A stretch of DNA of 20,000 nt from an uncultured virus (IMG/VR IMGVR_UViG_3300000302_000058) (IMGVR_UViG_3300000302_000058); one strand, 5' to 3'; shown: positions 464-15,152, numbered from the stretch's first letter. The notes: generated from the sequence alone by a model not told the origin. Translations and numbers: made by a program.

Positions 464-509
464 GGGCAAAAGATGTTTATTCGCAGCTTTGTTTTTTGAT
501 AATAAGTGA
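464..509 (+). promoter_or_regulatory. Candidate late promoter motif, copy 1
   Basis: GGGCAAAA-gatgt-TTA-N15-TTTGATAATAAGTGA in the intergenic gap after terminase; identical spacing to copies at 2994, 9700 and 14101. Confidence 0.6.
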
Positions 510-533
510 TATATGCTAAAAAGGAGGGATTCT

Positions 534-890
534 GTGCTAAGTTCTAAAGGTGAAAAAAAGATTCACGCTGTTCTAGAGCAATATGGAATCCCTTTTACTG
601 AAGAGTATGAATTTCCCGATTTGATTTCTACAAGTGGGAGGCACTTGCGATTTGATTTTGCGGTATTTAACGACGATGGGTCTTTAGATTTCTTAATCGA
701 GTACCAAGGCAGACAACATTACGAAGCTGTTAAGCATTTTGGTGGAGATAAGGCGGCTCAACGTCAAAAATACAATGATTCCGTCAAACGAGCATATTGT
801 GTCAAACATCATATTCAACTTGTTACGATTCCATTCTGGGATGAAGATAAAATATCTTATGAATACATCATGCAGGCTGCGGGATATTAA
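534..890 (+). CDS. Small PD-(D/E)xK (Vsr/DUF559-like) endonuclease-domain protein
   Basis: Motifs SKGEKKI, EYEFPDL, LRFDFAV, LIEYQGRQHY, D-x-x-K-x-x-YC, LVTIPFW. Start moved from 513 to GTG 534 because AGGAGG lies at 522-527. Confidence 0.75.
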   Translation: MLSSKGEKKIHAVLEQYGIPFTEEYEFPDLISTSGRHLRFDFAVFNDDGSLDFLIEYQGRQHYEAVKHFGGDKAAQRQKYNDSVKRAYCVKHHIQLVTIPFWDEDKISYEYIMQAAGY

Positions 891-901
891 AAGGAGGTGC
901 T

Positions 902-2500
902 ATGGCAAAACTATCTCAAACCCGTCAAAAAGAGATTGACTTTTCTAACTGGTATAAAAATAGTACCTACTATAATAAAATCAAAGTTGGTAGTAAGACG
1001 CTTCGTGATGATGCTTTTTTAAATGTTGATGCAACTACTGCGATTCAGACCAACAGACCAATCAAGAAAGATTTGGTTGTCAAAGCTATTAACTCTAAAG
1101 ATTATAAACAGCTTAGAGTCATTTCGAATTACTTCTATAATAAGAGTGGTATTTATGAACGTCTTATTAAATATATGGCTCACTTTTTCCGTTACGACTT
1201 TTTTGTTACACCGGTACAATATGATAAAACTGTGCCGCAAACGAAGATAATTGAAGGATGGTATAAGGCTTGTTTATTCTTAGAGAATTCTAAACCTAAG
1301 AAGCATCTTTCAGAGATTGCGGTCAAAGTGATTAAGAATGGTTGCTTTTATGGCTATCGTCTAGCTCAGAAAGACCGAGAGTTTTTACAGGAACTTCCAA
1401 TCGACTATTGCCGCAGTCGTTACAATTATAACGGCAAGCCCGCAGTCGAATTTAATGTTAAATATTTTGACGATACTTTTGCAGATAATGACTATCGTCT
1501 TCGTGTAGTGAAGATGTTTCCGAAAGAAATCCAACAGGCGTATGTTGCTTTTAAGAAGGGTATTTTGCCACAAGACTTTAACGGTGATGATAAGGGTTGG
1601 GTGCTTTTAGACCCAACAAAGACCGTTAAGTTTAATATTGATGGTTCTGATATGCCATTATTTATTAGTATCATTCCACATCTTTTGGATTTGGAAAAGG
1701 CTCAAGAAATTGACCTTCAAAAGATGCTTCAACAGATTTTGAAGATTATTATCCAAAAGTTCCCGCTTGATAAGAACAATGACCTTGTATTCGATATTGA
1801 CGAAATGCAAGCATTTCACAATATGGCTGTCGATATGTTGGGCGATGCGGTTGGAGTAGACGTTCTTTCTACTCTTGCGGATGTTGATGTTGCGGATATG
1901 TCTGATAAGGGCAATGTCTCTTCAGTTGACCAACTTGAAAAAGTAGAGCGTACAGTTTACAACGAAGCTGGCGTTTCTCAAATGCAATTTAATAGTGAAG
2001 GTTCTGTTGCTCTTGAACGCTCTATTTCTAATGACGAAGGTAGCTTAACCGATTTGATTCAACAGTTTGAAGAATATCTTGAAGATATGATTCTTCCTTT
2101 GAATCGCAATATTAAGAAGAAGTTAATCTATCGAGTTAATATTTTACCAACTACTGTTTACAATTACAAGGATATGGCATCTACTTATCGTGAACAGACG
2201 ATGCTTGGTTATTCTAAGCTTCTTACTCAGGTTGCTCTTGGAATGCCGCAAACCGTTGTTATGTCTGCGGCGATGTTTGAGAACCAGATGCTTAAACTTG
2301 ATGAAGTATTTATTCCGCCTCAAATGTCTTCTACTATGAGTGGAAACGACAGCGAGGATGAAGATAATAATAAAGACAGTGGTACTACTCAAAGTGGAGA
2401 CACTGGTAATGTTCAACCTCACGACGAGGGCGGCAGACCAGAAGTTGATACGGTTGAGAAGTCTGAAACCACTATCGAGACAGAAGAATCAAGACAGTAG
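902..2500 (+). CDS. Portal protein
   Basis: 532 aa, RBS AAGGAGGTG, located between terminase and prohead protease. Acidic low-complexity C-terminal tail with a GGRP motif, as is common in phage portals. Confidence 0.8.
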   Translation: MAKLSQTRQKEIDFSNWYKNSTYYNKIKVGSKTLRDDAFLNVDATTAIQTNRPIKKDLVVKAINSKDYKQLRVISNYFYNKSGIYERLIKYMAHFFRYDFFVTPVQYDKTVPQTKIIEGWYKACLFLENSKPKKHLSEIAVKVIKNGCFYGYRLAQKDREFLQELPIDYCRSRYNYNGKPAVEFNVKYFDDTFADNDYRLRVVKMFPKEIQQAYVAFKKGILPQDFNGDDKGWVLLDPTKTVKFNIDGSDMPLFISIIPHLLDLEKAQEIDLQKMLQQILKIIIQKFPLDKNNDLVFDIDEMQAFHNMAVDMLGDAVGVDVLSTLADVDVADMSDKGNVSSVDQLEKVERTVYNEAGVSQMQFNSEGSVALERSISNDEGSLTDLIQQFEEYLEDMILPLNRNIKKKLIYRVNILPTTVYNYKDMASTYREQTMLGYSKLLTQVALGMPQTVVMSAAMFENQMLKLDEVFIPPQMSSTMSGNDSEDEDNNKDSGTTQSGDTGNVQPHDEGGRPEVDTVEKSETTIETEESRQ

Positions 2501-2512
2501 GAGGTTATAAGA

Positions 2513-3997
2513 ATGATTTCTAATCGCTCTGTAGCCACTATTGATAGACCGGAATTTATTGATATTCAACCTTACAATCCTCTTATCTCACAATGTACCA
2601 TCAAGGTGCTTTATCTTGGTAAGAATCGTAACGGTTCTTTTATTGATAAGAATACGGCTATTCAAATGGCTAATTCATTACCGGGCACGCCGATTGTTGG
2701 GGCGTGGCGTAAGGATATCGAAGACTTTGGTGACCACGGCCATGTAATCACTATTGAAGATGGCGAGATTAAGTTTGCTTGCAAGACCGTTCCTTACGGC
2801 TTTGTTGCTCCCGGTGCTCGTGTTTGGTTCCAGAAGTTTAACGATATTGATGATTTTGGAAACGAAACTGAACGTGAATATATGATGACCACTGGCTATC
2901 TATGGACTGGACAGTTCCCAGAAGCTCAGAAGGTTATTGATGAAGGCCAAAATCAATCAATGGAACTAGATGAAGAACATTTGGACGGTCATTGGGCAAA
3001 TGACGCTAAAAGTGGGATGGACTTTTTCATTATCAATGATGCGGTATTCAGTAAACTCTGTATTCTAGGAGACGATGTAGAACCTTGTTTCGAAGGTGCC
3101 TCAGTCTTAGGTGGAGTTGACAACAACTATACAGAAGATACTGAATTCACGCATACATTATATACTATGATTAAACAACTTCAGGATATAATCGGCACCA
3201 CAGAAGGAGGGAAGAATATGCCAAAAAAGCCAGAAGAGTTAGAACAGACTGAGGTAGTCACTGAGTTCGTTGCCGGAAGTGGTAAGGACGAAGAAAAGAA
3301 AGACGAAACTCAGACTGAAACTAAAGATTCCGACGCTGAGAAGGAAGAAACTCCTTCTGAGGAGGAAGCCGAACCTGCGGCAGATGAAGAAAAGAAAGAG
3401 CCTNNNNNNNNNNNNNNNNNNNNNNNNNNNNNNNNNNNNNNNNNNNNNNNNNNNNNNNNNNNNNNNNNNNNNNNNNNNNNNNNNNNNNNNNNNNNTAAAA
3501 AAGAGCACGCTCTAGAAGAGTCTGAGCAGGAAGCTGAGGAAGAAAAGCCCGAAACTGAGCACGCTCTTGAAGAAGAACCTGCGGCTAAGGTTGAACCTGT
3601 TGTAGAACATTCTGCGGCAGAAGATGTTGAACCGGAACCTGCAAAAGTTAACTTTGCTCTTGAAGAGGAGAACAAGGAACTTCGTGCCGAGCTAGAGGCT
3701 CTTCGTCAGTTTAAACTTGATATCGAGAACAAAGAGAAGGATGCTTTGATTGCTAAGTATCATATGCTTAGCGACGAAGACAAGGCGGATATTATTGCTC
3801 ATAAAGAAGAATATACTTTAGAGCAAATTGACGAGAAACTTGCTCTCGTCTACGTCCGCAAGAACGTTGATTTCTCTACTGTTGATGGTCACCAAGAGGA
3901 AGAAGAGAAGATGGATTCCATTCTTTCCTTCTCCCTTGATGATAGTGAGGATGCGGAAGTTGTCAGCGACATTCAAGCTGCATTCCGTGCAATGTAA
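2513..3997 (+). CDS. Prohead maturation protease fused to acidic/coiled-coil scaffold domain
   Basis: The N-terminal ~235 aa carry KVLYLGKNRNGS, GTPIVG, GYLW, QSMEL and LCILGDDVEPCFEGASV motifs typical of caudoviral prohead proteases. The C-terminal half is very Glu-rich, then helical. The frame is preserved across the N gap as given. Confidence 0.75.
   Translation: MISNRSVATIDRPEFIDIQPYNPLISQCTIKVLYLGKNRNGSFIDKNTAIQMANSLPGTPIVGAWRKDIEDFGDHGHVITIEDGEIKFACKTVPYGFVAPGARVWFQKFNDIDDFGNETEREYMMTTGYLWTGQFPEAQKVIDEGQNQSMELDEEHLDGHWANDAKSGMDFFIINDAVFSKLCILGDDVEPCFEGASVLGGVDNNYTEDTEFTHTLYTMIKQLQDIIGTTEGGKNMPKKPEELEQTEVVTEFVAGSGKDEEKKDETQTETKDSDAEKEETPSEEEAEPAADEEKKEPXXXXXXXXXXXXXXXXXXXXXXXXXXXXXXXKKEHALEESEQEAEEEKPETEHALEEEPAAKVEPVVEHSAAEDVEPEPAKVNFALEEENKELRAELEALRQFKLDIENKEKDALIAKYHMLSDEDKADIIAHKEEYTLEQIDEKLALVYVRKNVDFSTVDGHQEEEEKMDSILSFSLDDSEDAEVVSDIQAAFRAM
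2994..3039 (+). promoter_or_regulatory. Candidate late promoter motif, copy 2 (intragenic)
   Basis: GGGCAAAT-gacgc-TAA-N15-TTTCATTATCAATGA, about 180 nt upstream of the internal ATG at 3218. Confidence 0.5.
3218..3997 (+). CDS. Putative nested scaffold protein (in-frame internal start within protease gene)
   Basis: AAGGAGG at 3204-3210, 7 nt before the in-frame ATG 3218 (M236, MPKKPEELE...), exactly where composition switches to acidic low complexity. Confidence 0.6.
   Translation: MPKKPEELEQTEVVTEFVAGSGKDEEKKDETQTETKDSDAEKEETPSEEEAEPAADEEKKEPXXXXXXXXXXXXXXXXXXXXXXXXXXXXXXXKKEHALEESEQEAEEEKPETEHALEEEPAAKVEPVVEHSAAEDVEPEPAKVNFALEEENKELRAELEALRQFKLDIENKEKDALIAKYHMLSDEDKADIIAHKEEYTLEQIDEKLALVYVRKNVDFSTVDGHQEEEEKMDSILSFSLDDSEDAEVVSDIQAAFRAM
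3404..3495. other. Assembly gap (92 N)
   Basis: Run of N inside the repetitive Glu-rich scaffold region; the true length is unknown. Confidence 0.99.
3503..3669 (+). repeat. Degenerate coding repeats in scaffold (EHALEE / EHSAAE / NFALEE)
   Basis: GAGCACGCTCTAGAAGA at 3503 and GAGCACGCTCTTGAAGA at 3557 (54 nt apart); GAACCTGC recurs at 3371, 3575 and 3635. Confidence 0.6.
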
Positions 3998-4027
3998 AAA
4001 CTATTTTTAGAAGGAGGAAAGTAGCAA

Positions 4028-4534
4028 ATGGCAGTATCTATTGCTAAGGCTAACGTTAAAGGCTATCGCCAAGTCGAGCCTAACCATCTAAGTGCTCCAC
4101 GCGACGGTCGCGTTTACGCACAACTTCCCGCAGCCGAAGATATTGAAGTGCTTGAACAGGGCACTTTCGTAAAGTATGACTATGCCAATGGCGAAGTCAA
4201 CTTCACCGGCAAAGGCCCTTGGATGATGGTTTTCAATGAGGAAAAACTATATGACGAGCGTAAGCAGATGCACCGTGATTTCGCTCAGCTTAAAGAGGAT
4301 GATATTCACGGCGTAATCGTTCCTCGTGTATTCGGCATGGTTCCCGGTGATATTTTCACCACTAACAACCTTGCTGATGGTTCCTACAATGTAGGTGACC
4401 TACTTGCTCCCGGTGCTGACGGTATTCTTGCCGCTGGTGGCACCGAGGGTGACGATCTTTGTGTTGAAGTCGTAAAAGAAACCACTATGCCTGACATGCA
4501 GCCTGCTGTCAAGGTTCGTGTTATTTCTGCTTAA
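4028..4534 (+). CDS. Capsid accessory / head decoration (stabilising) protein
   Basis: 168 aa, Gly-rich and beta-like, between scaffold and MCP. Strong RBS AAGGAGG and the same highly biased codon usage as the MCP. Confidence 0.55.
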   Translation: MAVSIAKANVKGYRQVEPNHLSAPRDGRVYAQLPAAEDIEVLEQGTFVKYDYANGEVNFTGKGPWMMVFNEEKLYDERKQMHRDFAQLKEDDIHGVIVPRVFGMVPGDIFTTNNLADGSYNVGDLLAPGADGILAAGGTEGDDLCVEVVKETTMPDMQPAVKVRVISA

Positions 4535-4556
4535 TTGAGGGGAGGTAAATAGTATA

Positions 4557-5591
4557 ATGGAGCTTTTAAAGTTTGATTCTCTTGTAAAGCTTGCTGTTGC
4601 AGCTTCTAACAAGACTTCTTTCAGTTTCTCTGAGAACGAGAAATATTCTGCCGAGCAGACTTCTGACCTACTTCGTGCTCAGATGAATCTTCTTGCCCAC
4701 GATTATCGTTCTTTCCGTGAGAACAAGAACACTATCTTCTCTCTAATCGAGCAGACTATTGACGAGGTTCTTCCTGCTAAGGTTCTACAGCAGTATGAGC
4801 AATTTGCGGATATTAGCACTGTTGCTCAAGGTGATAAGGTTGTATTCGTTCGCCGCATCACCGAAGCTTCTCGTATGCGTGCTAAGCAGTTCGTTACTCA
4901 GGTTGGCCTAGCTGGTCGTTACGAGACATTCATGCTCGACGGCGAGCGTCTTGAGGTCAAGACTAGTGCTATTGGTTCTGCCGCTCGTATCGGCTTCGAA
5001 GAGTTCCTTGATGGTCGTATTCAGTTCTCCGACCTTACCGATGTTATCATCGAAGCTATGGACGAGTACATTTACCGTGAGATTGCCAAGGCTCTTGCCA
5101 CCGCAGTTGAAGAGCTTCCTGCTCCTAACAAGGTAACTGCTTCTACCTTCGACGCTGCTTCTATGGACAGACTTCTTGCTATCGCTGACGCTTATGCTGG
5201 TGCTCCTGCTACAATTTATTGTACTTATGAGTTCGCCGCAACCATGCTTCCTGCTGAGGCTTGGGCTTCTAATGATATGAAGAACACTATTTGGGGCGAA
5301 GGTTATCTACCTCGTTACAAGGGTCACAACATCGTTCTTCTTCCTCAGTCTATGGAAGATGCTACCAACGCTAAGAAAGTAATCGACCCATCTAACGCTT
5401 ACATCATCAACTCTGGTGTTGAGAAGCCTGTCAAGATTGCTTTCGAGGGTCAGACCGCTGTCCGCGAGGTTTCTGACAATGATGACTGGAGCCGTGATAT
5501 GCAGACCTACAAGAAGTTTGGTGTTGCTATTCTAACCAATCCTTCTATCTGCGTATACAAGAACAGCTCCCTTAAGCTAGAGACTGTTTGA
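4557..5591 (+). CDS. Major capsid protein (HK97 fold expected)
   Basis: 344 aa, RBS GGAGGT, strongly biased codons (GCT, CGT, TTC, AAC) indicating high expression, canonical position in the head module. Ends at TGA 5589-5591. Confidence 0.85.
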   Translation: MELLKFDSLVKLAVAASNKTSFSFSENEKYSAEQTSDLLRAQMNLLAHDYRSFRENKNTIFSLIEQTIDEVLPAKVLQQYEQFADISTVAQGDKVVFVRRITEASRMRAKQFVTQVGLAGRYETFMLDGERLEVKTSAIGSAARIGFEEFLDGRIQFSDLTDVIIEAMDEYIYREIAKALATAVEELPAPNKVTASTFDAASMDRLLAIADAYAGAPATIYCTYEFAATMLPAEAWASNDMKNTIWGEGYLPRYKGHNIVLLPQSMEDATNAKKVIDPSNAYIINSGVEKPVKIAFEGQTAVREVSDNDDWSRDMQTYKKFGVAILTNPSICVYKNSSLKLETV

Positions 5592-6248
5592 GAAGAACCA
5601 GACCCAGAGCCAGAACCACCTGAACCAGGGCAAGAAACACACGCTGACGTTGCTAACGTAACTCAGTTGCGTGCAGCTCTGGACAATCCTCAGATTGAGA
5701 CGATTGCTCTAACTGGCAACTTCTCTACTTCTACAACTGTTTCCGTGAATCGTGCGGTAGATATCGACGGTCAAAATCACACTATCACGTTTACTAACAC
5801 TGGTCAGAACTTTGTAGTTGTAGCTAGTGGTACTAACGTACATGATTTAATAATCAAGAATACTGCGGCTGATACTACAGAATGGAATAGCACTTACGCT
5901 ATCCAATTCTACAAGGGCACGTATGACATTCACGATTTGACCGCAACGGGAGCTAATGCTGGTATCCTAATCAATAGCTCTACTGCTACCATCGGTGACA
6001 ATGTAGACGTTTCTGGCAATAACTTCGGAGGAATCGAGGTTTCACAGAGTTCTAGTCCCGACATGCCAGCTTCGCAAGCTACCATCAACTCTGTAATCAC
6101 CAATACTACAGAGGCTTACGGTAAGCCAACGGTTTGGACTGACGGGGAAAACGCCACAGTTATGGATAACACTGGCATGACCGCCAACGGTGAGGTCAAG
6201 GTCGGTCAGGTTCAGTATTACCTAAACGAAGAGAACTCCCACGAGTAG
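5592..6248 (+). CDS. In-frame C-terminal extension of MCP: Pro/Glu linker plus beta-helix (pectate-lyase-like) domain, probably made by TGA readthrough
   Basis: Same frame as MCP and open from the codon after TGA: EEPDPEPEPPEPGQETHADVANVTQLRAALDNPQIETIALTGN... to TAG 6246-6248. No RBS precedes the TTG at 5667 used by the ORF track. Confidence 0.7.
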   Translation, partial: EEPDPEPEPPEPGQETHADVANVTQLRAALDNPQIETIALTGNFSTSTTVSVNRAVDIDGQNHTITFTNTGQNFVVVASGTNVHDLIIKNTAADTTEWNSTYAIQFYKGTYDIHDLTATGANAGILINSSTATIGDNVDVSGNNFGGIEVSQSSSPDMPASQATINSVITNTTEAYGKPTVWTDGENATVMDNTGMTANGEVKVGQVQYYLNEENSHE

Positions 6249-6286
6249 GCTCTAGGTACTGAACATTAAATAGCTTTATTGTAAGG

Positions 6287-6327
6287 ACGGGGAGGGTGAT
6301 ACTAAATCCCCTCCCCGTTTTTATTTT
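6287..6327 (+). terminator. Rho-independent terminator after capsid operon
   Basis: Stem ACGGGGAGGG (6287-6296) / CCCTCCCCGT (6309-6318) followed by TTTTATTTT. Confidence 0.85.
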
Positions 6328-6349
6328 AGGAGAAAAAAGGAGAAAAATT

Positions 6350-6919
6350 ATGGCAGTTATTCGTGTTACTGAGCTTAGTGATACTGACAAAGTTATTATT
6401 CGTAATCTTGTCAATCATCCTGTAGTCATTGTAACCCCAATTCACAAGAAGCGTTTCGACCTTCCGCCCCACGGGGAAATGGAAGTAATGGTCGTAGATG
6501 TGCGGGAATGCTCTTACGACCAAGGTTGTCGTAATATGTTCCGTGATTATGTCCAAATTTGCGACCCAGAACTCGCTAAAGAGTTTGGCGTTTACGAAGA
6601 CGTTGTGGAATATAACTGGGGTGATAAGGAAATCACCGAAGCTCTAACTACTGCTCCAATTGAAGTGCTATTGGATGCTCTTGATTTTGCTCCCGATGGT
6701 ATTAAGGAAGCGATTCTAGACAAAGCTGTTGAACTTGAAATTCCTGATACTCGCCGTCGTGAGGCTATTAGCGAGGCTCTTGGAGTCAATGTTGATAACA
6801 AGATTAAAAACAAGCGTGATTCTCAGACTGGTGCCGAACCAGTTGCAAAGAAGGCTCGCCGTCGTGTTTCTTCCAATAGCTCTGAAACTAAGCAACGCCG
6901 CGTAGCAAAAGCGGAGTAA
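6350..6919 (+). CDS. Hypothetical virion morphogenesis protein
   Basis: ATG 6350 with AAGGAG RBS; the track start at 6296 falls inside the terminator. Basic C-terminal tail; lies directly after the MCP block. Confidence 0.7.
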   Translation: MAVIRVTELSDTDKVIIRNLVNHPVVIVTPIHKKRFDLPPHGEMEVMVVDVRECSYDQGCRNMFRDYVQICDPELAKEFGVYEDVVEYNWGDKEITEALTTAPIEVLLDALDFAPDGIKEAILDKAVELEIPDTRRREAISEALGVNVDNKIKNKRDSQTGAEPVAKKARRRVSSNSSETKQRRVAKAE

Positions 6920-6937
6920 TATAAAGAAGGAGGAATT

Positions 6938-7453
6938 ATGCCAGATTGTGCAAATACTCCTGAGTATACTACCTTTCAAGAAGTGTATGATGCCTTTACC
7001 TCTGGTATCACAGATGATATGTTTATGGAAATGACAAAAGAGGATACGGATGAAATTCTTGAAGAATTGCTAATGGCGGCTTTACCTCATTTTGAATTCC
7101 CACGGCAGGATATTTTTAATCTTGATAAATATAATAAAAGATTTAAATGTCTTCTTACTGCCGAAGAAATACGTATCATTCGTTCTTACATGGTAGTAGA
7201 ATGGATTAACTATCAACTTGCTAGTATTGAAAACGTGCGGCAAAAATATAGTGGAAGTGATTTTAGTTTCACTTCACAAGCTTCTCATATGGATAAGCTA
7301 ATTAAACTTCGTGAGACTTATAAAGACGAAGGATTCAAACTACAAAGACTCTACAAACGTCGCCGTAGAGCAGAGGATGGTTCTTACACATCGACTTTCA
7401 GAAAGATTATGTCTAAGCAACCTCGAAAGTTTGGTGACGTGTATGAGCCTTAA
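6938..7453 (+). CDS. Putative head-tail adaptor/connector protein
   Basis: 171 aa, predicted helical, RBS AAGGAGG, neck-gene position. Function inferred from gene order. Confidence 0.5.
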   Translation: MPDCANTPEYTTFQEVYDAFTSGITDDMFMEMTKEDTDEILEELLMAALPHFEFPRQDIFNLDKYNKRFKCLLTAEEIRIIRSYMVVEWINYQLASIENVRQKYSGSDFSFTSQASHMDKLIKLRETYKDEGFKLQRLYKRRRRAEDGSYTSTFRKIMSKQPRKFGDVYEP

Positions 7454-7763
7454 GATTGTTGATATTACTTGTAATAGGAGCGTGGTAGCTGAAAAACTAC
7501 ACAAGCTCACAGGACAAGTATTTCGTTTACTCCCGGCTCGTGAAGAGGGGGAGGATTGGATTAAGCCTCTAGAGACGGTTATTGTAGAGCTATCTGGTTT
7601 GTTTAATTTACTTGATGATTTACAAACTGGATTGACTGTGATTAGTAAGCTTGAAGGTTTGCGGCAACAGGGTGTGGATGTTGAATTTCCTCTTTATCGC
7701 CGCACAATTTTCGAGTGTTGTACTCTTTTATCTAATTTAGAACAGCAAATGCTCGAAGGCTAG
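7443..7763 (+). CDS. Hypothetical protein (neck region)
   Basis: ATG 7443 preceded by GGTGA and overlapping the previous gene's end by 11 nt; 106 aa, helical. The track start at 7311 is unlikely. Confidence 0.65.
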   Translation: MSLKIVDITCNRSVVAEKLHKLTGQVFRLLPAREEGEDWIKPLETVIVELSGLFNLLDDLQTGLTVISKLEGLRQQGVDVEFPLYRRTIFECCTLLSNLEQQMLEG

Positions 7764-7773
7764 GAGGTTTCAA

Positions 7774-8901
7774 ATGTCAATGAAATCCTTAGCTAGTAGG
7801 CTTACCTATGCTGGCGGCGACCAACTTGGCCGCATTAAAATGAACAAATTGCGTTCTTTTAAAGCGGCTTTGAAGAACGATTATCAATCACGTATGATTA
7901 AAGTCCCAAACAAGACAGCTTGGCCTTGTTTGATTAATAATAATACGTCCGGTTTGAAGTCAGACTATGACCGCAAGCGTTTATCCGTTGAATTTGATTC
8001 GGGGCTGCAAAGCGGAGATGTTTTTGAGTGCCTAGATGATGGTACACATTGGATGGTTTATTTGCCGACTTTGACTGAAATTGCTTATCTTCGTACCGAG
8101 ATTATCCGTTGTCGATACACGCTTGATGTAGATGGTCAAGTCTATTGGGTCTATTTCCAAGGGCCAACTGAGACAGATGTTACTTGGTTCCAAAAACAGG
8201 GTGTCCATTACGATGAACCGAATCTTTCTGGTACTATTTATATCAAAAAAGATGAACGTACAAAAGGATTTTTTAGTCGTTTTACCAAAATTCAAATGGA
8301 TGGACACGCTTGGGAAGTGCATATTGTAGACGAGATTTCTGTTCCCGGCATTATTGAACTTGAAGTCCGTGAGTTCTATGATGACCCTCTCGCAGATTTA
8401 CCTGTAGTTGAAAAAGAAGGTTGCCACGAAATTATAGGTCGTGAAAAAGTCGAACAAGATGGTACTTATGGATATATGATTCGTGACGCTTATTTTAATC
8501 CTGAGTTCTCTTGGAGAATTGAAGGTAATCCAAGAGTAGAGATAGAGTCTCAAGAGGGTAAGATGTGCAATGTACTTGTTCATGATGGCGCGATTCGTGG
8601 ATTTAAGCTTGTTTATGGTAATAAGAATTCTGGGTATCATATTGACGTAGCCATTGAACGCGAATGCAATGGTGTTGTGGGGCCAAAGTCTGTTTATCCT
8701 TACGATATTGTAGATTATAAGTCTAACGTGACTGGTACTTATCGACTTTCAGATAATCGAGTCGCTAAGATTATAGAGCGAACCGATACTGGTTGCACAG
8801 TGGAAATCACATCTGGGCGTTCAGGTGATTTTAAGGTTATCTTTGACCCCGCTGATTACGACATGATAATTGAATATCCGGTTCATATTGAGTCATTGTA
8901 A
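7774..8901 (+). CDS. Putative head closure/stopper-like protein with two C-terminal beta-sandwich repeats
   Basis: 375 aa, RBS AGGAGG, beta-rich N-terminal part (LQSGDVF...WMVY), neck position, duplicated ~80-aa C-terminal unit. Confidence 0.45.
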   Translation: MSMKSLASRLTYAGGDQLGRIKMNKLRSFKAALKNDYQSRMIKVPNKTAWPCLINNNTSGLKSDYDRKRLSVEFDSGLQSGDVFECLDDGTHWMVYLPTLTEIAYLRTEIIRCRYTLDVDGQVYWVYFQGPTETDVTWFQKQGVHYDEPNLSGTIYIKKDERTKGFFSRFTKIQMDGHAWEVHIVDEISVPGIIELEVREFYDDPLADLPVVEKEGCHEIIGREKVEQDGTYGYMIRDAYFNPEFSWRIEGNPRVEIESQEGKMCNVLVHDGAIRGFKLVYGNKNSGYHIDVAIERECNGVVGPKSVYPYDIVDYKSNVTGTYRLSDNRVAKIIERTDTGCTVEITSGRSGDFKVIFDPADYDMIIEYPVHIESL

Positions 8902-8911
8902 GGGAGGAAGA

Positions 8912-9505
8912 ATGATTAGACGGGCACCCGTTCTTGAAACTAATTACAAGTCAAGCTTCTTCTCTTATGAAAAGAATCTTGAATTGATTGTTAAGAAACT
9001 TTTTGTAGACAATCCTGCATACGCGGAGAATCTTAAACGTCTTTTGGTTATTAATAAACCAGACTGTCTTGCGACTGGGAATGAAGCTTATAATGAATTA
9101 ATTAAAGGTTACAGCGTAGGGCGGTTGAAGAAAGAAGGATATGTCCGTACAGTTCCGCGTCTTGACCTAAAGGAACATGCAGATATTAAATCGTATATTA
9201 TTATTATGATGGATGATTTTACCCCTACTTCAAATGATAAATATCGAGATTGTACTATTACGTTTTTTATCTTTTCTGAATATGACTATGCAGAGATGGA
9301 TAATTACGAATATCGCCCCATAAAGATTGCTGGATACATTGATGGTATTATGAGAGATGCTAAGCTTGCGGGAATCGGCAAATTACAATTCCTTGGAGCA
9401 CAGCAAGTTCCGCTGAATGAATATTGGGGTGGAATGGCCTTGATGTATGTTACGACACACGGAGAAGAAGAGGATTCAAGTCCTAACATTAACGAAGCGT
9501 CGTGA
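8912..9505 (+). CDS. Putative tail terminator / tail completion protein
   Basis: ATG 8912 with GGGAGG RBS; alpha/beta pattern (ITFFIF...RPIKIAGYIDGIM...GIGKLQF); upstream of the tail tube gene. Ends TGA-TAA. Confidence 0.45.
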   Translation: MIRRAPVLETNYKSSFFSYEKNLELIVKKLFVDNPAYAENLKRLLVINKPDCLATGNEAYNELIKGYSVGRLKKEGYVRTVPRLDLKEHADIKSYIIIMMDDFTPTSNDKYRDCTITFFIFSEYDYAEMDNYEYRPIKIAGYIDGIMRDAKLAGIGKLQFLGAQQVPLNEYWGGMALMYVTTHGEEEDSSPNINEAS

Positions 9506-9511
9506 TAAACT

Positions 9512-10354
9512 ATGGCAGAAGAGTACAAAGGAGATATTGGGCTATATCTTTCTGGACAACAAGTGAAAGTGCCGTCGTGCGGTGTTTTTATCACTCAACC
9601 AAAGATTAAAGATATAGTCCTAAGAAGTAGTGAAAATGAGTTTATGACAGCCGCGCACTTGTTAACTCATATCGACAAATTTGCGGCGATGATAAAAGAG
9701 GGCAAAAATGTGTTAGATACTATGCCTGATTTTCAAATAATCATAGAGGTTTTAAGGCAAGAGAATGGACAATTCACTCAATTAATAAATAATTTTTTTG
9801 CTTTGTGTTTGCCGCAATTCACCATTAAATGTTCAAAACACTCATTAGATTTTGTTACAGAAGATGGTGTTACTGTTGGAGTGCTCAATACATTTAATTA
9901 TAGTGATTTTGCTACAACTTTACAAGAGTTGTTCATTCCTCGCCAAAAAGAAGAAGAGCCTGAATATCATATTGATGAATCTAACGAAATGTCTAGAAGG
10001 TTATTGGAAAAGATAAAGCGAAATCGAGAGGCGTTGGCAAAACAGCGTGCGGCCAAAGAAGGAAGTAATATGTCAGTTTTTGGTTTGTACATTTCTGCTT
10101 TGTCTATTGGATTAGGTATGGATATAAATGTGTTTTATAATTATACTCCATTTCAATTATATGATGCTTTTAATCGTTTCTTAGCTAAGATGGCAAGAGA
10201 TAAATATGAGTCAATGCTGATGATTCCTTTTGCAGATACATCTAAGATTCAGGCTAATAAACCTCCAAGTTGGTTAGAAAATCTTTACAAGCCAACTGAA
10301 GAAAAATATAACTCTTTGCAAAAGCTTAACTCTGTTGGGGCTGATGCGAAGTAG
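9512..10354 (+). CDS. Hypothetical tail-region protein
   Basis: 280-aa ORF. The C-terminal 'DINVFYNYTPFQLYDAFNR' is reminiscent of tail-assembly chaperone-like segments; function uncertain. Confidence 0.6.
   Translation: MAEEYKGDIGLYLSGQQVKVPSCGVFITQPKIKDIVLRSSENEFMTAAHLLTHIDKFAAMIKEGKNVLDTMPDFQIIIEVLRQENGQFTQLINNFFALCLPQFTIKCSKHSLDFVTEDGVTVGVLNTFNYSDFATTLQELFIPRQKEEEPEYHIDESNEMSRRLLEKIKRNREALAKQRAAKEGSNMSVFGLYISALSIGLGMDINVFYNYTPFQLYDAFNRFLAKMARDKYESMLMIPFADTSKIQANKPPSWLENLYKPTEEKYNSLQKLNSVGADAK
9700..9747 (+). promoter_or_regulatory. Candidate late promoter motif, copy 3 (intragenic)
   Basis: GGGCAAAA-atgtg-TTA-N15-TTTCAAATAATCATAGA, about 720 nt upstream of the major tail protein gene. 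Confidence 0.45.
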
Positions 10355-10369
10355 GTATATTATTGTAGA

Positions 10370-10397
10370 AAAAATCACCTTTTCGCGGGTGGTTTTT
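10370..10397 (+). terminator. Hairpin, weak terminator or RNA-stabilising stem
   Basis: AAAAATCACC / GGTGGTTTTT inverted repeat (one G-U pair) in the intergenic region before the tail tube gene. Confidence 0.4.
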
Positions 10398-10461
10398 AGC
10401 AATGAGATATGTATACATAGACAAATTGTTAAGAAAAAAGAAAGGAAAAGGTGATTTCAGA

Positions 10462-11808
10462 ATGGCACAATATGGTATTCGTGACATTACTGACCTTGTT
10501 CTCAAGGCGCGCACCCGCGTGAAAATCGGTAAGCAAGTCTTCCAGCCCGGTCAGCCTGTAGTTTATTTTACTACCGCTCAGACCGCCACTCTTGAAGGTG
10601 CTGCTACTCAGGTCTTCGCGCAGGGCGGACATGGTTATCCTCGTCTTATTGCATGGGAAGGTGAGCGTACTGTAACGCTAACTCTCACTGAAGCTCTAAT
10701 CTCTCCTGAGAGCTTTGCAGTTCTATCTGGCGCTCTTCGTTCTGATGCTTCTGTAGAGGATAAGGCTTATATGCCTACTTGGTTTGAAGCTCCTGTTCAA
10801 GCTGATGGTTCTGTAGTTCTTGACCTTGATATTTGCGGCGATGACCATGACATTATCGTAAACGATACTTATCCAATGTTCGGTGTTGTACTTGACGATT
10901 CTGGCGCTCTTGCTGTTCATCTTGGTGAGCAGGCTGGTCTTGCTGGTGTAACTCCTAACTGTGATGTTTACACTGTAACTCGTGACAACAAGCTTCAGAT
11001 TACTTTCCCTAACGCTGAGCGTTATGCTGGTCGTGTTGTTCGTGTTGATTGCTATGTTGAGAAGACTGCTGGCGTAACTTCTCTTGATGTTACTGCTGAA
11101 GACTTCTCTGGTAACTTCTACGCTGAGGCTCTTACCTTCTTCCGTGAGCAGACCACTGGTACTGATATGCCTGTTGCTCTTATCTTCCCGAACGTCAAGG
11201 TCCAGTCCAACTTTACTCTCACCATGTCTGCTACTGGTGACCCTTCTACCTTTGATTTCGTAATGGATTGCTTCCCTGCTTACGTTAAGGGCGATTATGC
11301 TCACAAGGTCTTCTTTAAGACTATGATTGCTGGTCAGGATGCTTATACCCTACAGGAGTCTGAGGCTGCTGAGTGCCCAGAACTTGACATTGCTTTTGAC
11401 TCTGTAACCGCTGGTACTGACGTATTTACTGTGAAGGAGTTTGCTGGTAAAGACCTTACCACTCTAGGCTCTAACCTAAGTGCCACTGTTGACCGTGCCA
11501 GCATTGATTTTGCTGGTAAGCTCAACTATACTCCAAACTGGACTGAATTTGGTACTGCGGAACAAGACTTAGTTGGTTACTACTTCCCATTCCAGATGAA
11601 GGCCGAGAATGGTGCTAAGTTCATTATGGAGAACACTAGTGTTGGTCAGAAGACTCTAGTCTTTGGCGAGACTGGTGATGGTGACGGTACTATTAATATG
11701 GTTATGGCCGTTAACCCCGATGCTCCTGTAATGAACGCTAAACTACAGAGTGCTGACGAATCTAAGACTGTTGAATATAGCTTAGACTTCAGCGCTTGCC
11801 AATTCTAA
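10462..11808 (+). CDS. Major tail (tube) protein with C-terminal accessory domain
   Basis: ATG 10462 with AAGGTGA RBS; MCP-like high-expression codon bias. Motifs AQGGHGYPRLIAWEGERTVTLTLTEAL and FPNVKVQSNFTLTMSATGDPSTFDF resemble siphoviral tube proteins. A strong terminator follows. Confidence 0.75.
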   Translation: MAQYGIRDITDLVLKARTRVKIGKQVFQPGQPVVYFTTAQTATLEGAATQVFAQGGHGYPRLIAWEGERTVTLTLTEALISPESFAVLSGALRSDASVEDKAYMPTWFEAPVQADGSVVLDLDICGDDHDIIVNDTYPMFGVVLDDSGALAVHLGEQAGLAGVTPNCDVYTVTRDNKLQITFPNAERYAGRVVRVDCYVEKTAGVTSLDVTAEDFSGNFYAEALTFFREQTTGTDMPVALIFPNVKVQSNFTLTMSATGDPSTFDFVMDCFPAYVKGDYAHKVFFKTMIAGQDAYTLQESEAAECPELDIAFDSVTAGTDVFTVKEFAGKDLTTLGSNLSATVDRASIDFAGKLNYTPNWTEFGTAEQDLVGYYFPFQMKAENGAKFIMENTSVGQKTLVFGETGDGDGTINMVMAVNPDAPVMNAKLQSADESKTVEYSLDFSACQF

Positions 11809-11829
11809 TCTAACCTTAGATTGATTTAG

Positions 11830-11864
11830 GGGGAGAGGGAATTATCCCTCTCCCCTCTTTTTTT
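11830..11864 (+). terminator. Rho-independent terminator after major tail gene
   Basis: GGGGAGAGGGA-atta-TCCCTCTCCCC perfect 11-bp stem followed by TCTTTTTTT. Confidence 0.9.
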
Positions 11865-11893
11865 ATATGTATAGAGATAAAAGGAGGTGAATT

Positions 11894-13522
11894 GTGCTAG
11901 GAGGATTACCAAGTTATTATCACTATTCTTGGGAAGGGGCTTCAGAAGAACCGTTAGTTCAATCTGTTCAATCTCTTTTAGCCAATAGCAAAGATACCAT
12001 TTTATCTAACTATATAGGACGGTATAATGAAGCGTTCAATCTTTTCCAAGAGCAATCAGGTATATCATTAAGTGATGAACAAAGCGCAGTTCTTGATTTT
12101 GCGGCGGAGGAAACGTTAACTTCGCAAGATTTGGAAGCTGCTTTATCTTCTGCCATGAATCAAGCCCCGATTTCTGGTACTGATGTGGGTGGAGGAATGG
12201 GGCTTATTGCGGCTATTCAAGCACTAAATCAAAAAGTAACTGTAACGAATAAAACTTTAACTAATCTTAGCGCTTTAATGGATGCTTTTACAAACGCTAC
12301 CGATTTATATAAGCAAGTAGAAGATTCTATTGTCGCCCAAGGCGGAAACCTACGTTCTAAGGCTAGAGCTAAGTCTACCGTCGTGCGGCAAGTCGTTCAG
12401 AATATATTAAATCATCCAAATGGTTCTAAATGGAATCGTAGTTCTCAAGGATATATTAATGGCATTTCTGGTCTTAGTCAACGACTAAATCAATGGTTAG
12501 TTTTATTGTATGCTTTGACTACTAATCGTGTTCCGAGAGGTAGTAAAACTGCGGTCAAGGCCGCAATCATTCAGACTGTAAAAAATGATATGAACGGATT
12601 AGTAACTGCTCTTGGTAATGTTGGTACTAGAATAGCTTCTGCTGTTGCTACAATACAGTTCATTGAAACTTTAAATAGCCAAATAGATGTAAGTAAATTG
12701 AAAGTTAGCGCGCATACAAGTGGCGGTTTTATTGGACATACTATCAAAATAGAGAATAATGGTGCGACCCAGAGCTTATTAAATAACGTAAAATCAGAGC
12801 TAGCCGCTTTAGGTGGAGTGCAAGGCGGAATGGGAGATAAATTAAGTGTCAAATTGCCAAAAGCAAACGTGCAAGCTAATCAGCAAACATGGTCTGATAC
12901 ATTAGATGCGAATATTAATAATGTTACAGTTAAACCAACAACTAGTGTACGGACGTTGAGCAACGGAAGTCAGCGAATTGGTAGTATTACTGTGCAGCGT
13001 TCGACTTCTATGTTATCTTTGCTGAGGCAAGAATTGAATCTTAGTTCAAATAATGTCATAGGCTTATTGCAGTTAGCAATGGCACAGAACAGTTCTGAAC
13101 CAGATTCAACTTGGAATGATTTGCGGGAATATACCAAAAAGGCATTGTTGATTCCTGCTTTAACTGGTTTAGGTACTGCCGATTTTTCTAATATGAACTT
13201 AGCTACGATGATTAAGATAAATGATTATATCATTCCTATGCCGCAATTCTTAAATTATTTACAAGCGGCTTTAACTCGTCAAGCTGACGTGTTAGGAGAG
13301 TCATTTACTGGGTATATATCATTAGAGGGCTTCCCTAACAGGGGTGCTTTTACTAAGATTAATGCTTGGCAATCTCCCGCACAAAACAACTGGATTGCTG
13401 CACATCGTCGTTCTAGGCTTGCTTCATCAGAAGGTAAAGGACTATTACAATCTACTAAACTAAGAATGAGATTGAGAAATTTAAATTTGACGATGTTAAT
13501 CAAAGCTGGTTCTATCATTTAA
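11894..13522 (+). CDS. Hypothetical protein (542 aa, tail region)
   Basis: GTG start with strong RBS AAGGAGGTGA; long ORF rich in S/N/Q/T/L/A; no family recognised. Confidence 0.75.
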   Translation: MLGGLPSYYHYSWEGASEEPLVQSVQSLLANSKDTILSNYIGRYNEAFNLFQEQSGISLSDEQSAVLDFAAEETLTSQDLEAALSSAMNQAPISGTDVGGGMGLIAAIQALNQKVTVTNKTLTNLSALMDAFTNATDLYKQVEDSIVAQGGNLRSKARAKSTVVRQVVQNILNHPNGSKWNRSSQGYINGISGLSQRLNQWLVLLYALTTNRVPRGSKTAVKAAIIQTVKNDMNGLVTALGNVGTRIASAVATIQFIETLNSQIDVSKLKVSAHTSGGFIGHTIKIENNGATQSLLNNVKSELAALGGVQGGMGDKLSVKLPKANVQANQQTWSDTLDANINNVTVKPTTSVRTLSNGSQRIGSITVQRSTSMLSLLRQELNLSSNNVIGLLQLAMAQNSSEPDSTWNDLREYTKKALLIPALTGLGTADFSNMNLATMIKINDYIIPMPQFLNYLQAALTRQADVLGESFTGYISLEGFPNRGAFTKINAWQSPAQNNWIAAHRRSRLASSEGKGLLQSTKLRMRLRNLNLTMLIKAGSII

Positions 13523-13540
13523 GAGACAAAAGGAGAGTAT

Positions 13541-14095
13541 ATGTTTGATATCGAGTATGAAAAGAGCAAAAAGATTTCCACCGAGCAAATGTCGATGATT
13601 CTTGACATGGCTGCTCAGGCCGCAAGCGACGGCGGATTTATCAGCTCTTATATTTTCTATCGTGCGGCTTACGTTTTTGCCGCACAAGTGCTTTACCCAG
13701 AAAAGAAGGATACAATTGCTTCTACTGTTGGAGTAGGTTATGACATTCGTCTAGCTTTTGACCTTCTTGTTCAAGATGGAACTATTGAGGATATGCAGAC
13801 TACTTATGAAGTTGATATGAAGAAGCTTGATAGTGCAGCTGAGACTTGGTATTACGAGGTTTCTGATTATCAACAGTCTGCTCGTGGTCTTGTTGATTCT
13901 ATTACAACTCTTAGTGGCGATATTGTTAAGTCTGCTACTGAGCAGCTTCAGCAAGTAGCTAACGGTGATGTAAAGATTATCCAAGAATTTGCTGACCGTT
14001 GGGGTTTTAATCGCCCAACTCCCGGTGAGGATAATGCTGTTAGTGCCGCAGATATTCAAAAAAGTTTCCAAGCTTTAAAAGGCGGCAAAGAGTAA
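13541..14095 (+). CDS. Putative tail assembly chaperone
   Basis: 184 aa, acidic and helical, RBS AAGGAG, between the tube and tape measure genes. Function inferred from position. Confidence 0.45.
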   Translation: MFDIEYEKSKKISTEQMSMILDMAAQAASDGGFISSYIFYRAAYVFAAQVLYPEKKDTIASTVGVGYDIRLAFDLLVQDGTIEDMQTTYEVDMKKLDSAAETWYYEVSDYQQSARGLVDSITTLSGDIVKSATEQLQQVANGDVKIIQEFADRWGFNRPTPGEDNAVSAADIQKSFQALKGGKE

Positions 14096-14100
14096 ACCTA

Positions 14101-14146
14101 GGTCAAAAATCTATAAAAATATAGCCCCTACTTTCAGTATATGAGA
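14101..14146 (+). promoter_or_regulatory. Candidate late promoter motif, copy 4
   Basis: GGTCAAAA-atcta-TAA-N15-TTTCAGTATATGAGA, intergenic, upstream of the endonuclease and tape measure genes. Confidence 0.6.
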
Positions 14147-14164
14147 GTAGGGACTTTTTTATTT
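14126..14164 (+). terminator. Rho-independent terminator-like hairpin
   Basis: CCCTACTTTCA / TGAGAGTAGGG stem (one G-U pair) followed by ACTTTTTTATTT. Confidence 0.65.
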
Positions 14165-14183
14165 AGACTTAAAAGGAGTGATT

Positions 14184-15152
14184 ATGGGAAGAAGAATAAG
14201 GTATCTGTTAGGAGATGAAATTGGCACTAAAGGATGCCGATTCTTCTATGAAATAGAGCCGAGACGCAGTGGTAAAACGCAACAGGCGGTGCGTCAAGCT
14301 TATTTTAAATGCCCTCAGTGTGGTGCTAAATTTTTAGCAGATATAGGTGCTGTGCGAAAAGATTTGATGTGGCGTTGTAAAGAATGCACAAATAAAGCTA
14401 AAGGCTTGTCTCGTAAATTTCAATACGAAGTTGGAGATTATATAGACGCACAACATAATTTTATATATCTAGGAGAATATCAAGATAATACTTGTAATCG
14501 AAAAGTTACTGTAAAAGATATTCGAACCGGAGAGGTTTTTTCTACTTTTTTAAGTGGATTAAAAACAGGTAGGACTAAATATGCCCTTAGTATGTCTAAA
14601 AAAGAAGGTGGATTAAAAAATCAAAAGTACCATGTTGGAGACATAATAAACGGGGTTTTATTTGAACAAGAATTAGATAGATATATCACACCGAATGGGC
14701 AGGTTAAAAGGGTTGGTCTATTTAAAAATTTAGAAACTGATAAAGAGTTTATATGCTGGATTAATAGTGTCATTTACGGACATAGCTTAGGACTAGAAAA
14801 CGAGTCTTTAGGAGAGAATACTATTCGCAGATGGCTAGAAGAACACAATATATATTTTCAGCAAGAATATTCTTTTGAAAATTTAATTTCAGAACGTGGT
14901 AAAAAATTACGTTTTGATTTTTTCATACCTGCTATGAATTTATTAATTGAATATGATGGTATTCAACATTTCGAGAATACTTTTAGACTACCGGAGGAAG
15001 AGTATCAATATAGACTTTCTCTAGATAAATTAAAGGATAATTATGCTAAAGAGCATAATTATACTTTAATAAGAATTGGATACTCAGATTTCTCTGATAT
15101 ATCCATTATTTTATCGAAGAAAGTAGGTGAAGCTCTTGAGCAAATTCAGTAA
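14184..15152 (+). CDS. Putative free-standing homing endonuclease: repeated N-terminal domains (CxxC zinc ribbon) plus C-terminal PD-(D/E)xK nuclease
   Basis: ATG 14184 after AAGGAG; contains CPQC...CKEC. C-terminal SLGENTI, QEYSFENL, LRFDFFI, LIEYDGIQHF, DKLKDNY and LIRIGY motifs. AT-rich codons (AGA, ATA, TTA) unlike the structural genes. Confidence 0.75.
   Translation: MGRRIRYLLGDEIGTKGCRFFYEIEPRRSGKTQQAVRQAYFKCPQCGAKFLADIGAVRKDLMWRCKECTNKAKGLSRKFQYEVGDYIDAQHNFIYLGEYQDNTCNRKVTVKDIRTGEVFSTFLSGLKTGRTKYALSMSKKEGGLKNQKYHVGDIINGVLFEQELDRYITPNGQVKRVGLFKNLETDKEFICWINSVIYGHSLGLENESLGENTIRRWLEEHNIYFQQEYSFENLISERGKKLRFDFFIPAMNLLIEYDGIQHFENTFRLPEEEYQYRLSLDKLKDNYAKEHNYTLIRIGYSDFSDISIILSKKVGEALEQIQ

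Follow-up and report, generated by a model that had tools for sequence, protein, structure and literature searches.

Does a set of short sequence boxes that recurs along an uncultured gut phage mark a promoter class of its own, or is it a pattern picked out by chance? The window, a stretch of 20,000 nucleotides (nt) of an uncultured virus (IMG/VR IMGVR_UViG_3300000302_000058), contains four copies of the tripartite motif GGKCAAAW-N5-TWA-N15-TTTSA, at positions 464, 2994, 9700 and 14101, which a first-pass annotation had interpreted as a phage-specific late promoter. Comparison of the window with its relatives indicates that the copies at 464, 9700 and 14101 genuinely belong to a motif found throughout the family, whereas the copy at 2994 does not. 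We consider it probable that these three sites represent a family-specific promoter class, read by the host RNA polymerase together with a phage-encoded factor.

Four copies of the motif in the window

All long open reading frames (ORFs) of the window are located on the + strand. The four copies reported in the first-pass annotation were recovered as exact + strand matches:

464-499 (block 464..512), + strand: GGGCAAAA-N5-TTA-N15-TTTGA, then GATAAT at 498-503
2994..3029, + strand: inside ORF 2513-3997, codons W-A-N-D-A-K-S-G-M-D-F-F-I
9700-9735 (block 9700..9749), + strand: inside ORF 9512-10354, then AATAAT at 9736-9741 and TAGAGG
14101-14136 (block 14101..14160), + strand: intergenic, overlapping an intrinsic terminator

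The annotation had placed all copies in front of gene blocks. The context found here is different: 464 and 14101 are intergenic, and 2994 and 9700 lie inside ORF 2513-3997 and ORF 9512-10354, respectively. GGNCAAA seeds occurred 12 times on the + strand, identical to the list given earlier, and four times on the − strand. No shuffle out of 200 contained four matches to the pattern, a test that is biased since the pattern had been fitted to the same four sites. A selection-aware control was therefore used, in which 12 random + strand positions of the window were drawn, the best of the 495 four-subsets was taken and the invariant downstream columns were counted. The six invariant columns observed were attained in 136 of 2000 trials (P = 0.068), so that from the window alone the motif is non-significant and unestablished. 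A scan of the window for the generic sigma-70 consensus was uninformative (53 sites vs 50.6 expected).

A family-wide motif with fixed spacing

The whole window used as a DNA query gave no match in the phage collection. At the protein level, its portal shared 39% identity with the portal of the gut phage Phass-1 and 29% with the EF1 portal (Enterococcus phage), and the protein of ORF 2513-3997 used as a query against viral contigs returned 80 loci, 12 of which contained the exact pattern. The phage belongs to a family of ∼130-145 kb gut siphophages related to phAss-1. The relative L001 is part of a complete genome of 143,581 bp (G001), which is 86-96% identical to the window in nucleotide sequence and lacks the HNH gene at 14178-15152; the alignment of the two is broken at a run of 92 N at 3404-3495, inside ORF 2513-3997. 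Five complete or near-complete genomes were used for the family comparison, G001 and the diverged G002, G003, G004 and G006. The G+C content of motif-bearing relatives ranged from 28% to 47%.

In these five genomes, on both strands, exact GGNCAAA and TTTSA boxes separated by a gap of 24 nt were found 6, 4, 3, 2 and 0 times (15 in total), while each of 12 other gaps gave 0-2 matches in total. The exact pattern of the first-pass annotation occurred in G001 at the four orthologous sites only. When up to one mismatch was allowed, gap 24 gave 31 intergenic matches co-oriented with the next gene and gap 23 gave 14, against 1-5 (mean 3.0) at each of 14 control gaps (16-22 and 26-32). This is the excess over controls, with bias in strand and position, that a genuine signal had been expected to give. 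Matches inside genes were flat and did not rise at the motif spacing: in the sense orientation there were 27 at gap 24 and 25 at gap 23 (13-27 at other gaps), and in the antisense orientation 18 and 20 (6-20 at other gaps).

The 31 intergenic co-oriented instances shared further properties. Of these, 25 finished 26-60 nt before a called ORF start. The TAA box was not part of the search pattern and was nevertheless conserved (T14 in 24, A15 in 26 and A16 in 28 of the 31), as were other columns outside the pattern (T31 in 26, T37 in 23 and A38 in 25). The fixed-spacing tripartite arrangement proposed from the window was thus borne out across the family, co-oriented with genes and upstream of them, and the family consensus can be written, from the aligned instances, as GGnCAAA(a)-N6-TAA-N14-TTTTnA-TAtaat. 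Even in clades whose flanking genes share only 37-65% amino acid identity, the motif preceded both the nuclease-like and portal genes and the tape measure gene. Most instances had a conserved sequence but no conserved hairpin, and some were close to AT-rich palindromes or terminators.

Three of the four sites belong to the family motif

A weight matrix was trained on 24 intergenic instances, all drawn from G002, G003, G004 and G006; neither the window nor G001 contributed to it, and the N run of the window was counted as zero in the scan. The matrix ranked 9700 first in the window (30.8), 464 second (22.1) and 14101 third (18.4). The best match in each of 200 Markov-shuffled windows served as the null, with a 95th percentile of 12.6; the score of 464 was attained in none of the 200 null windows and that of 14101 in one. 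Site 2994 scored 7.6, which is background and was attained by the best match of 64 of the 200 null windows. Sites 464, 9700 and 14101 were counted as real because of the spacing enrichment, the matrix ranking and the synonymous constraint at 9700 described below.

Site 464 is located between the end of a terminase-like gene (454) and a small nuclease-like gene. The element was found at the same position despite diverged flanks in ten relatives (L001-L006, L008-L010 and L015), and its geometry was also kept in G004, G003 and G002. We considered a hairpin or terminator at this site and rejected it: the pairing, inspected by eye, was inconsistent across relatives, and the site was missing from the list of terminator-like sites.

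Site 2994 was judged to be a by-product of coding sequence and no functional copy, because its boxes follow the peptide and its matrix score is at background. In the 80 relatives the boxes tracked the peptide, and synonymous variants (TTC TTT ATT) abolished the TTTSA box, including in L007-L009; the clade of L008-L010 retains site 464 while L007-L009 have lost this box. The first box reads TGG TCA ACA in most relatives.

Site 9700 lies ∼650 nt upstream of a virion structural gene (10402-11808). The protein of the gene that contains the site is only 24-30% identical across relatives. Constraint was evaluated in 18 lineages with mutual amino acid identity below 60%. The Asp codon was GAC in 15 of 15 cases (share elsewhere in the gene 0.18), Leu was TTA in 18 of 18 (0.52 elsewhere) and Ile was ATA in 15 of 15 (0.32 elsewhere), and the third base of codon 63, just before the Asp, was G in 17 of 18 lineages even where the amino acid had changed. 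This pattern indicates that site 9700 is under nucleotide-level constraint inside the gene. Reduced synonymous variation, expected for both intragenic copies, was therefore found at 9700, in these 18 lineages, and not at 2994, where the box is lost synonymously. An internal translation start at this site (GAGGG, 7 nt, in-frame GTG) was ruled out, as relatives have GTT, GTC or ATT at the position of the GTG.

Anatomy of the motif and range of genes

The TTTSA box is a T-rich stretch adjoining a TATAAT-like hexamer, whose commonest placement is positions 37-42. The best xAxxxT hexamer was present in 28 of the 31 instances and began at position 37 in 10 of them. Counted from this hexamer, the TAA box lies ∼18 bp upstream, at about −35, where it makes a poor −35 element (∼3 of 6 matches to TTGACA), and the GGNCAAA box falls at about −48 to −42, separated from the −10-like hexamer by ∼29 bp. 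The first-pass annotation had held the geometry to be unlike sigma70/sigmaA. That view needs correction, since the core is compatible with a promoter of the sigma-A type with a host-type −10, to which GGNCAAA is added as an extra element; what makes the motif special is the fixed pair of upstream boxes.

G001 carries at least 7-10 copies of the motif. Copies stand before structural genes at 20743, 42567, 50834, 64381 and, weakly, 68752, and also before nrdD (2324), a GIY-YIG gene (4611) and endonuclease genes at 84408, 90843 and 105218. A late promoter, as had been proposed, is probably too narrow a label, given the copies before nrdD and homing-endonuclease genes in the early/middle region. 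G001 also has an early-type promoter class, TTGACT...TGnTATAAT, which lacks GGNCAAA and is distinct from the motif class; the canonical form TTGACTCTTGG-N12-TGnTATAATATA precedes many + strand genes in the 80-125 kb region (L089-L091). A third promoter-like group, AGGGTATAAT, was seen in G001 at 94.6, 115.4 and 132.2 kb, with AGGGTATA in the upstream regions five out of six times.

Overlap with a terminator before the tape measure gene

Site 14101 overlaps a predicted intrinsic terminator, with the features expected of one: a G+C-containing hairpin, a T run and location at a gene end. An 11-pair stem at 14126-14152 is followed by the T-rich tail ACTTTTTTAT; the fold has −21.3 kcal/mol and a z of −4.25, and none of 200 shuffles was equally stable. 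The T tract, the TTTCA box and the TATA-like part of the site form the 5′ arm and loop of the hairpin. The same arrangement was found in the window, G001, G006, G002 and G003, where, ahead of the tape measure gene, GGNC(A/G)A(A/T) and TAA at fixed spacing are followed by a hairpin, with the T tract and −10-like part in its 5′ arm and loop, and then by a T run. These hairpins had z values of −3.1 to −4.7, and their stem sequences were unrelated between clades. The overlap of motif and terminator is kept in four clades.

Proposed mechanism and a candidate factor

The genes of the window that bear on the proposal are the following:

534..890 (ORF from 513), + strand: small gene for a nuclease-like protein, labelled 'homing endonuclease' by PHROGs, with a weak DUF2726 match
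902-2500, + strand: portal gene (PHROGs), directly after the nuclease-like gene
2513-3997, + strand: ORF holding site 2994
9512-10354, + strand: ORF holding site 9700
10402..11808, + strand: virion structural protein gene (phrog_2729), likely target of site 9700
14178..15152, + strand: HNH homing endonuclease gene (PHROGs), likely start ATG 14184
15127..19998, + strand: tape measure protein gene (PHROGs), continuing beyond the window end, the conserved gene 3′ of site 14101

From the position, orientation, spacing and conservation of the motif we infer promoter activity of the following kind. The host RNA polymerase would use the −10-like hexamer, while a phage factor would recognise the upstream boxes. 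Site 464 would serve expression of the portal gene and of the small nuclease-like gene before it, and site 9700 would act as an internal promoter for the gene of an abundant virion protein (10402-11808). From inside the terminator, site 14101 would provide the tape measure gene with a new transcription start: transcripts arriving from upstream would end there, and those started internally, which are without the 5′ arm of the hairpin, would read on. The timing of such transcription may extend beyond late infection, as the range of genes suggests.

The best candidate for the factor is a conserved protein of 370 amino acids, which may work by activation or in place of a sigma factor. It is encoded at 67576-68688 of G001, where its gene opens the structural block, ∼2.7 kb before the position at which the window starts. 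It matched phrog_5767 'sigma factor' with E 1.4e-35 (PHROGs), and the same automatic label is carried by homologues in Enterococcus, Geobacillus and Brevibacillus phages (GenBank records). Homologues numbered 357, with no Pfam domain among the 120 listed; 41 aligned homologues were 49-95% identical to the candidate and had an invariant CxxC...CxxC tail. In an AlphaFold model the mean pLDDT (predicted local distance difference test) was 77.4, with residues 180-350 above 89. In the VIA comparison, residues 209-309 aligned to sigma-H (3mzy; Z 6.5, 76 residues, root-mean-square deviation 3.1), residues 246-301 to a small-terminase helix-turn-helix (HTH; Z 7.1) and residues 241-298 to DosR (Z 6.0). 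In Atlas, the closest named clusters carried GerE on 37-47% of their members, with scores of 0.92-0.94. Both the VIA and the Atlas results are leads that fall short of what these tools treat as decisive. The leading description of the candidate is a putative sigma-4/LuxR-like HTH with a C-terminal zinc ribbon, and position, conservation and fold suggest its tie to the motif. A phage-encoded sigma factor, activator or RNA polymerase had been predicted; the PHROGs match in a near-identical relative agrees with the first of these, while Pfam gave no sigma or RNA polymerase domain in the 146 G001 ORFs of ≥80 amino acids (five piece-straddling ORFs and shorter ORFs lay outside the scan).

A copy of the motif was also seen in the 3′ end of the candidate gene itself, in G003 (81338), G002 (62209), L028 (4818) and L069 (3581). 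It lies in the zinc-ribbon codons G-Q-x-K-L-A-H-N-x-F-F-S-K, just before the next packaging-region gene.

A more far-reaching proposal, which we offer tentatively, is that phrog_5767 represents a novel type of specificity factor for RNA polymerase. Its recognition signal would consist of two upstream boxes, GGNCAAA (about −45) and TAA (about −35), at an exact base-pair distance from a host-type −10. The family would use this signal in three unusual forms: embedded in coding sequence under synonymous constraint, fused with a terminator hairpin, and captured by homing endonucleases for their expression.

Evidence weighing against the proposal

Several results weigh against a factor-dependent promoter class. 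Besides the non-significant selection-aware control in the window, the search pattern itself inflates the conservation counted in columns 1-7 and 32-36, and terminator tails could be the source of part of the T-rich signal. The 49 kb structural region of Enterococcus phage EF1 (the other 93 kb lay outside the scan) showed no spacing peak and no motif enrichment, its best matrix match being 15.7 and the remainder at background. EF1 has a factor homologue of 30% identity without motif enrichment, so factor and motif may not travel together.

Other points concern the candidate. It had no match in Pfam up to E 10. Against solved-structure sequences the single sequence gave none and the profile one spurious match. 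Foldseek with the whole model against PDB returned spurious long-helix matches only, with one helical hairpin dominating, and the VIA Z values (at most 7.1) are within the range common for helical models. No sigma region 2 was detected in the candidate by Pfam, PDB sequence or fold searches.

RNA data give a weak hint in favour of the proposal at most. They consist of assembled contigs of relatives with 85-95% identity, with run shares of at most 0.09. One metatranscriptome contig (run X7) extends from 9790 to 11830, ending in a terminator; contigs cannot reveal true RNA ends. Another, from a different study (run X8), starts at 9806 among the contig ends listed, 16 nt from the X7 start, which also counts against the proposal. 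Both starts are 3′ of site 9700, and the DNA-like run X1 continues through this region. Higher contig depth over 10242-11483 was discarded as evidence, as depth per contig cannot rank genes.

Alternative explanations

The alternative that survives best, although we regard it as unlikely, is that the promoters are read by the host primary sigma holoenzyme alone, GGNCAAA and TAA being a UP-like or other host-recognised element. The TATAAT-like hexamer after TTTSA, with TAA ∼18 bp upstream at the spacing of a primary sigma factor, fits this explanation, as do the lack of a Pfam sigma or RNA polymerase domain in the G001 ORFs scanned and the unproven sigma label of the candidate. It accounts less well for the coexistence of two classes in G001, where early promoters have a TTGACT −35 and a TGn extended −10 without GGNCAAA, or for a TAA that matches only ∼3 of 6 positions of a −35. 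An element with fixed base pairs, containing G and C, at −48 to −42 is also unlike UP elements (textbook background), and the motif is kept over a G+C range of 28% to 47%, probably in different hosts.

Somewhat less likely again is that the motif is real and acts outside initiation, as a site of RNA processing or stability or as a DNA-binding site for repression, packaging or nucleoid organisation. Co-orientation and a distance of 26-60 nt from start codons would suit a leader RNA element equally, and at the tape measure position the motif overlaps an RNA hairpin in four clades. A conserved hairpin is missing from most instances, however, and what follows downstream is a TATAAT block of the −10 type, as is characteristic of promoters. 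Terminators upstream of or within some instances mean that the next gene needs a new start.

A third explanation is that the motif is part of mobile homing-endonuclease cassettes, as a mark of insertion or as their own expression signal. Instances in G001 do precede endonuclease genes at 4611 (GIY-YIG), 84408 (DUF2726-type), 90843 (beside HNH) and 105218 (HNH), and in the window an HNH gene follows directly 3′ of site 14101. The motif and ∼60 nt before the HNH gene are near-identical between G001 105218 and G006 17300, in genomes whose core proteins are ∼45-65% identical, which suggests recent transfer of an endonuclease cassette with its promoter. We nevertheless hold this explanation to be very improbable, given that G001 has site 14101 without the HNH gene, that the gene after site 464 is a core gene, syntenic in all five genomes, and that other instances precede nrdD, tape measure and tail genes; it is simpler to suppose that endonuclease genes have borrowed a phage promoter class.

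That the four copies are a chance pattern picked by eye from coding-strand composition and T runs, with no common function, is hardly credible: within the window the control gave P = 0.068, site 2994 is accounted for by a conserved peptide and a seed strand bias of 12 vs 4 is expected because all genes are on one strand, but the 31 vs ∼3 spacing-specific intergenic co-oriented matches in five genomes, the cross-validated matrix that places three of the four sites at the top and the synonymous constraint at 9700 leave this explanation standing for 2994 only.

Relation to known systems

As a kind, the motif is most likely a phage-specific, factor-dependent promoter class, a kind already known. 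SPO1 gp28 and gp33/34 and T4 gp55 are phage specificity factors that act with the host core polymerase at a promoter consensus before middle or late genes. The candidate is like these sigma factors in that its homologues are labelled 'sigma factor' (PHROGs and several GenBank records). It is unlike them in that no Pfam sigma region 2 or 4 was detected in it and in that the upstream box is ∼29 bp from the hexamer, beyond a standard −35/−10 pair. To our knowledge, the motif bears no relation to the promoter consensus of either SPO1 or T4. In T4 middle promoters (MotA box and sigma-70 −10, 'sigma appropriation') and in the p4-activated late promoter A3 of phi29, a phage-factor site at a fixed distance replaces or supplements the −35 next to a host-type −10, and homing-endonuclease genes ride on promoters of this kind. 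The present motif is similar in these respects and differs in the sequence and position of its boxes (−48 to −42, and TAA at about −35).

The late activators of the RinA/ArpU type in Gram-positive siphophages offer another comparison. RinA is described as binding the promoter region upstream of terS and controlling the late operon (PMC3152322). As with RinA/ArpU, the gene of the candidate, a putative DNA-binding factor, is directly upstream of packaging and structural genes, and the promoter lacks a good −35. A motif copy is located in the 3′ end of the candidate gene before the next packaging-region gene (G003, G002, L028 and L069). Unlike the sites of RinA/ArpU, the motif occurs many times per genome rather than once, also before nrdD and endonuclease genes, and the candidate is a protein of 370 amino acids with a zinc ribbon and without a Pfam match.

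The window phage is like phAss-1 of the proposed Phassvirus group of human-gut phages (PMC10607447) in belonging to the same broad family of ∼133-136 kb siphophages and in having very long tape measure genes. TAG recoding was described for phAss-1 (PMC10607447), and some relatives of the window appear likewise to read TAG as sense, unlike the window and G001, which are on the standard genetic code. With TAG taken as sense, coding density rose from 0.81 to 0.92 in G003 (L093-L099) and from 0.74 to 0.92 in G004 (L115-L121); with TGA taken as sense, it rose from 0.74 to 0.88 in G002 (L107-L114, G+C 28%). In-frame TAG codons were seen within aligned genes of L072, L078 and L080. These relatives appear to use alternative genetic codes.

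The main text of PMC10607447 (supplements aside) contains no occurrence of 'promoter', 'sigma' or 'RNA polymerase'. As far as literature searches reach, supplements aside, neither the consensus nor the family of the candidate factor appears to be in print, and the same is true of the copies embedded in coding sequence or fused with a terminator. The ∼140 kb gut phages are uncultured and most of their genes unannotated. A validated consensus would allow their genomes to be split into transcription units and co-regulated genes to be predicted, including those of nucleotide metabolism and homing endonucleases, and the conserved, uncharacterised phrog_5767 protein would gain a testable function. 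The terminator-promoter overlap, found in four clades with unrelated stems, points to a compact regulatory design that is directly testable; if true, a single element of 60 nt would end transcripts arriving from upstream and begin that of the tape measure gene.

Other features of the window and its relatives

The small nuclease-like gene, the first gene 3′ of site 464, likely starts at GTG 534, with GGAGGG at 523-528 before it. All five genomes have it in synteny, between the terminase and portal genes, at 54-99% identity, a degree of conservation close to that of the portal. Its appearance is that of a core nuclease of the packaging region and not of a mobile gene.

The HNH gene at 14178-15152 sits between site 14101 and the tape measure gene, and in G001 the terminator directly adjoins the tape measure gene; by this comparison the HNH gene is an insertion. 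Contigs of run X6 connect 14160 with 15142 or 15154, leaving out 981 or 993 bases.

Downstream of the virion structural gene the following was recorded:

11829-11856, + strand: strong intrinsic terminator with a 12-pair stem, 3′ of gene 10402-11808
11829..11875, + strand: the same terminator followed by TTTTTTTATATGTATAGAG, a borderline motif match without GGNCAAA

The match at 11829..11875 had a matrix score of 11.5, under the null 95th percentile of 12.6.

In G001, nine adjacent small genes (124-149 amino acids) at 20.8-26 kb (L086:829-5983) each encode a baseplate Gp10_C domain. Inverted repeats such as ATCCTTATCGAAAGGAT occur in the spacers between them, and two of the genes are preceded by a run of 9-10 G. 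This array may be a variable receptor-binding tip array.

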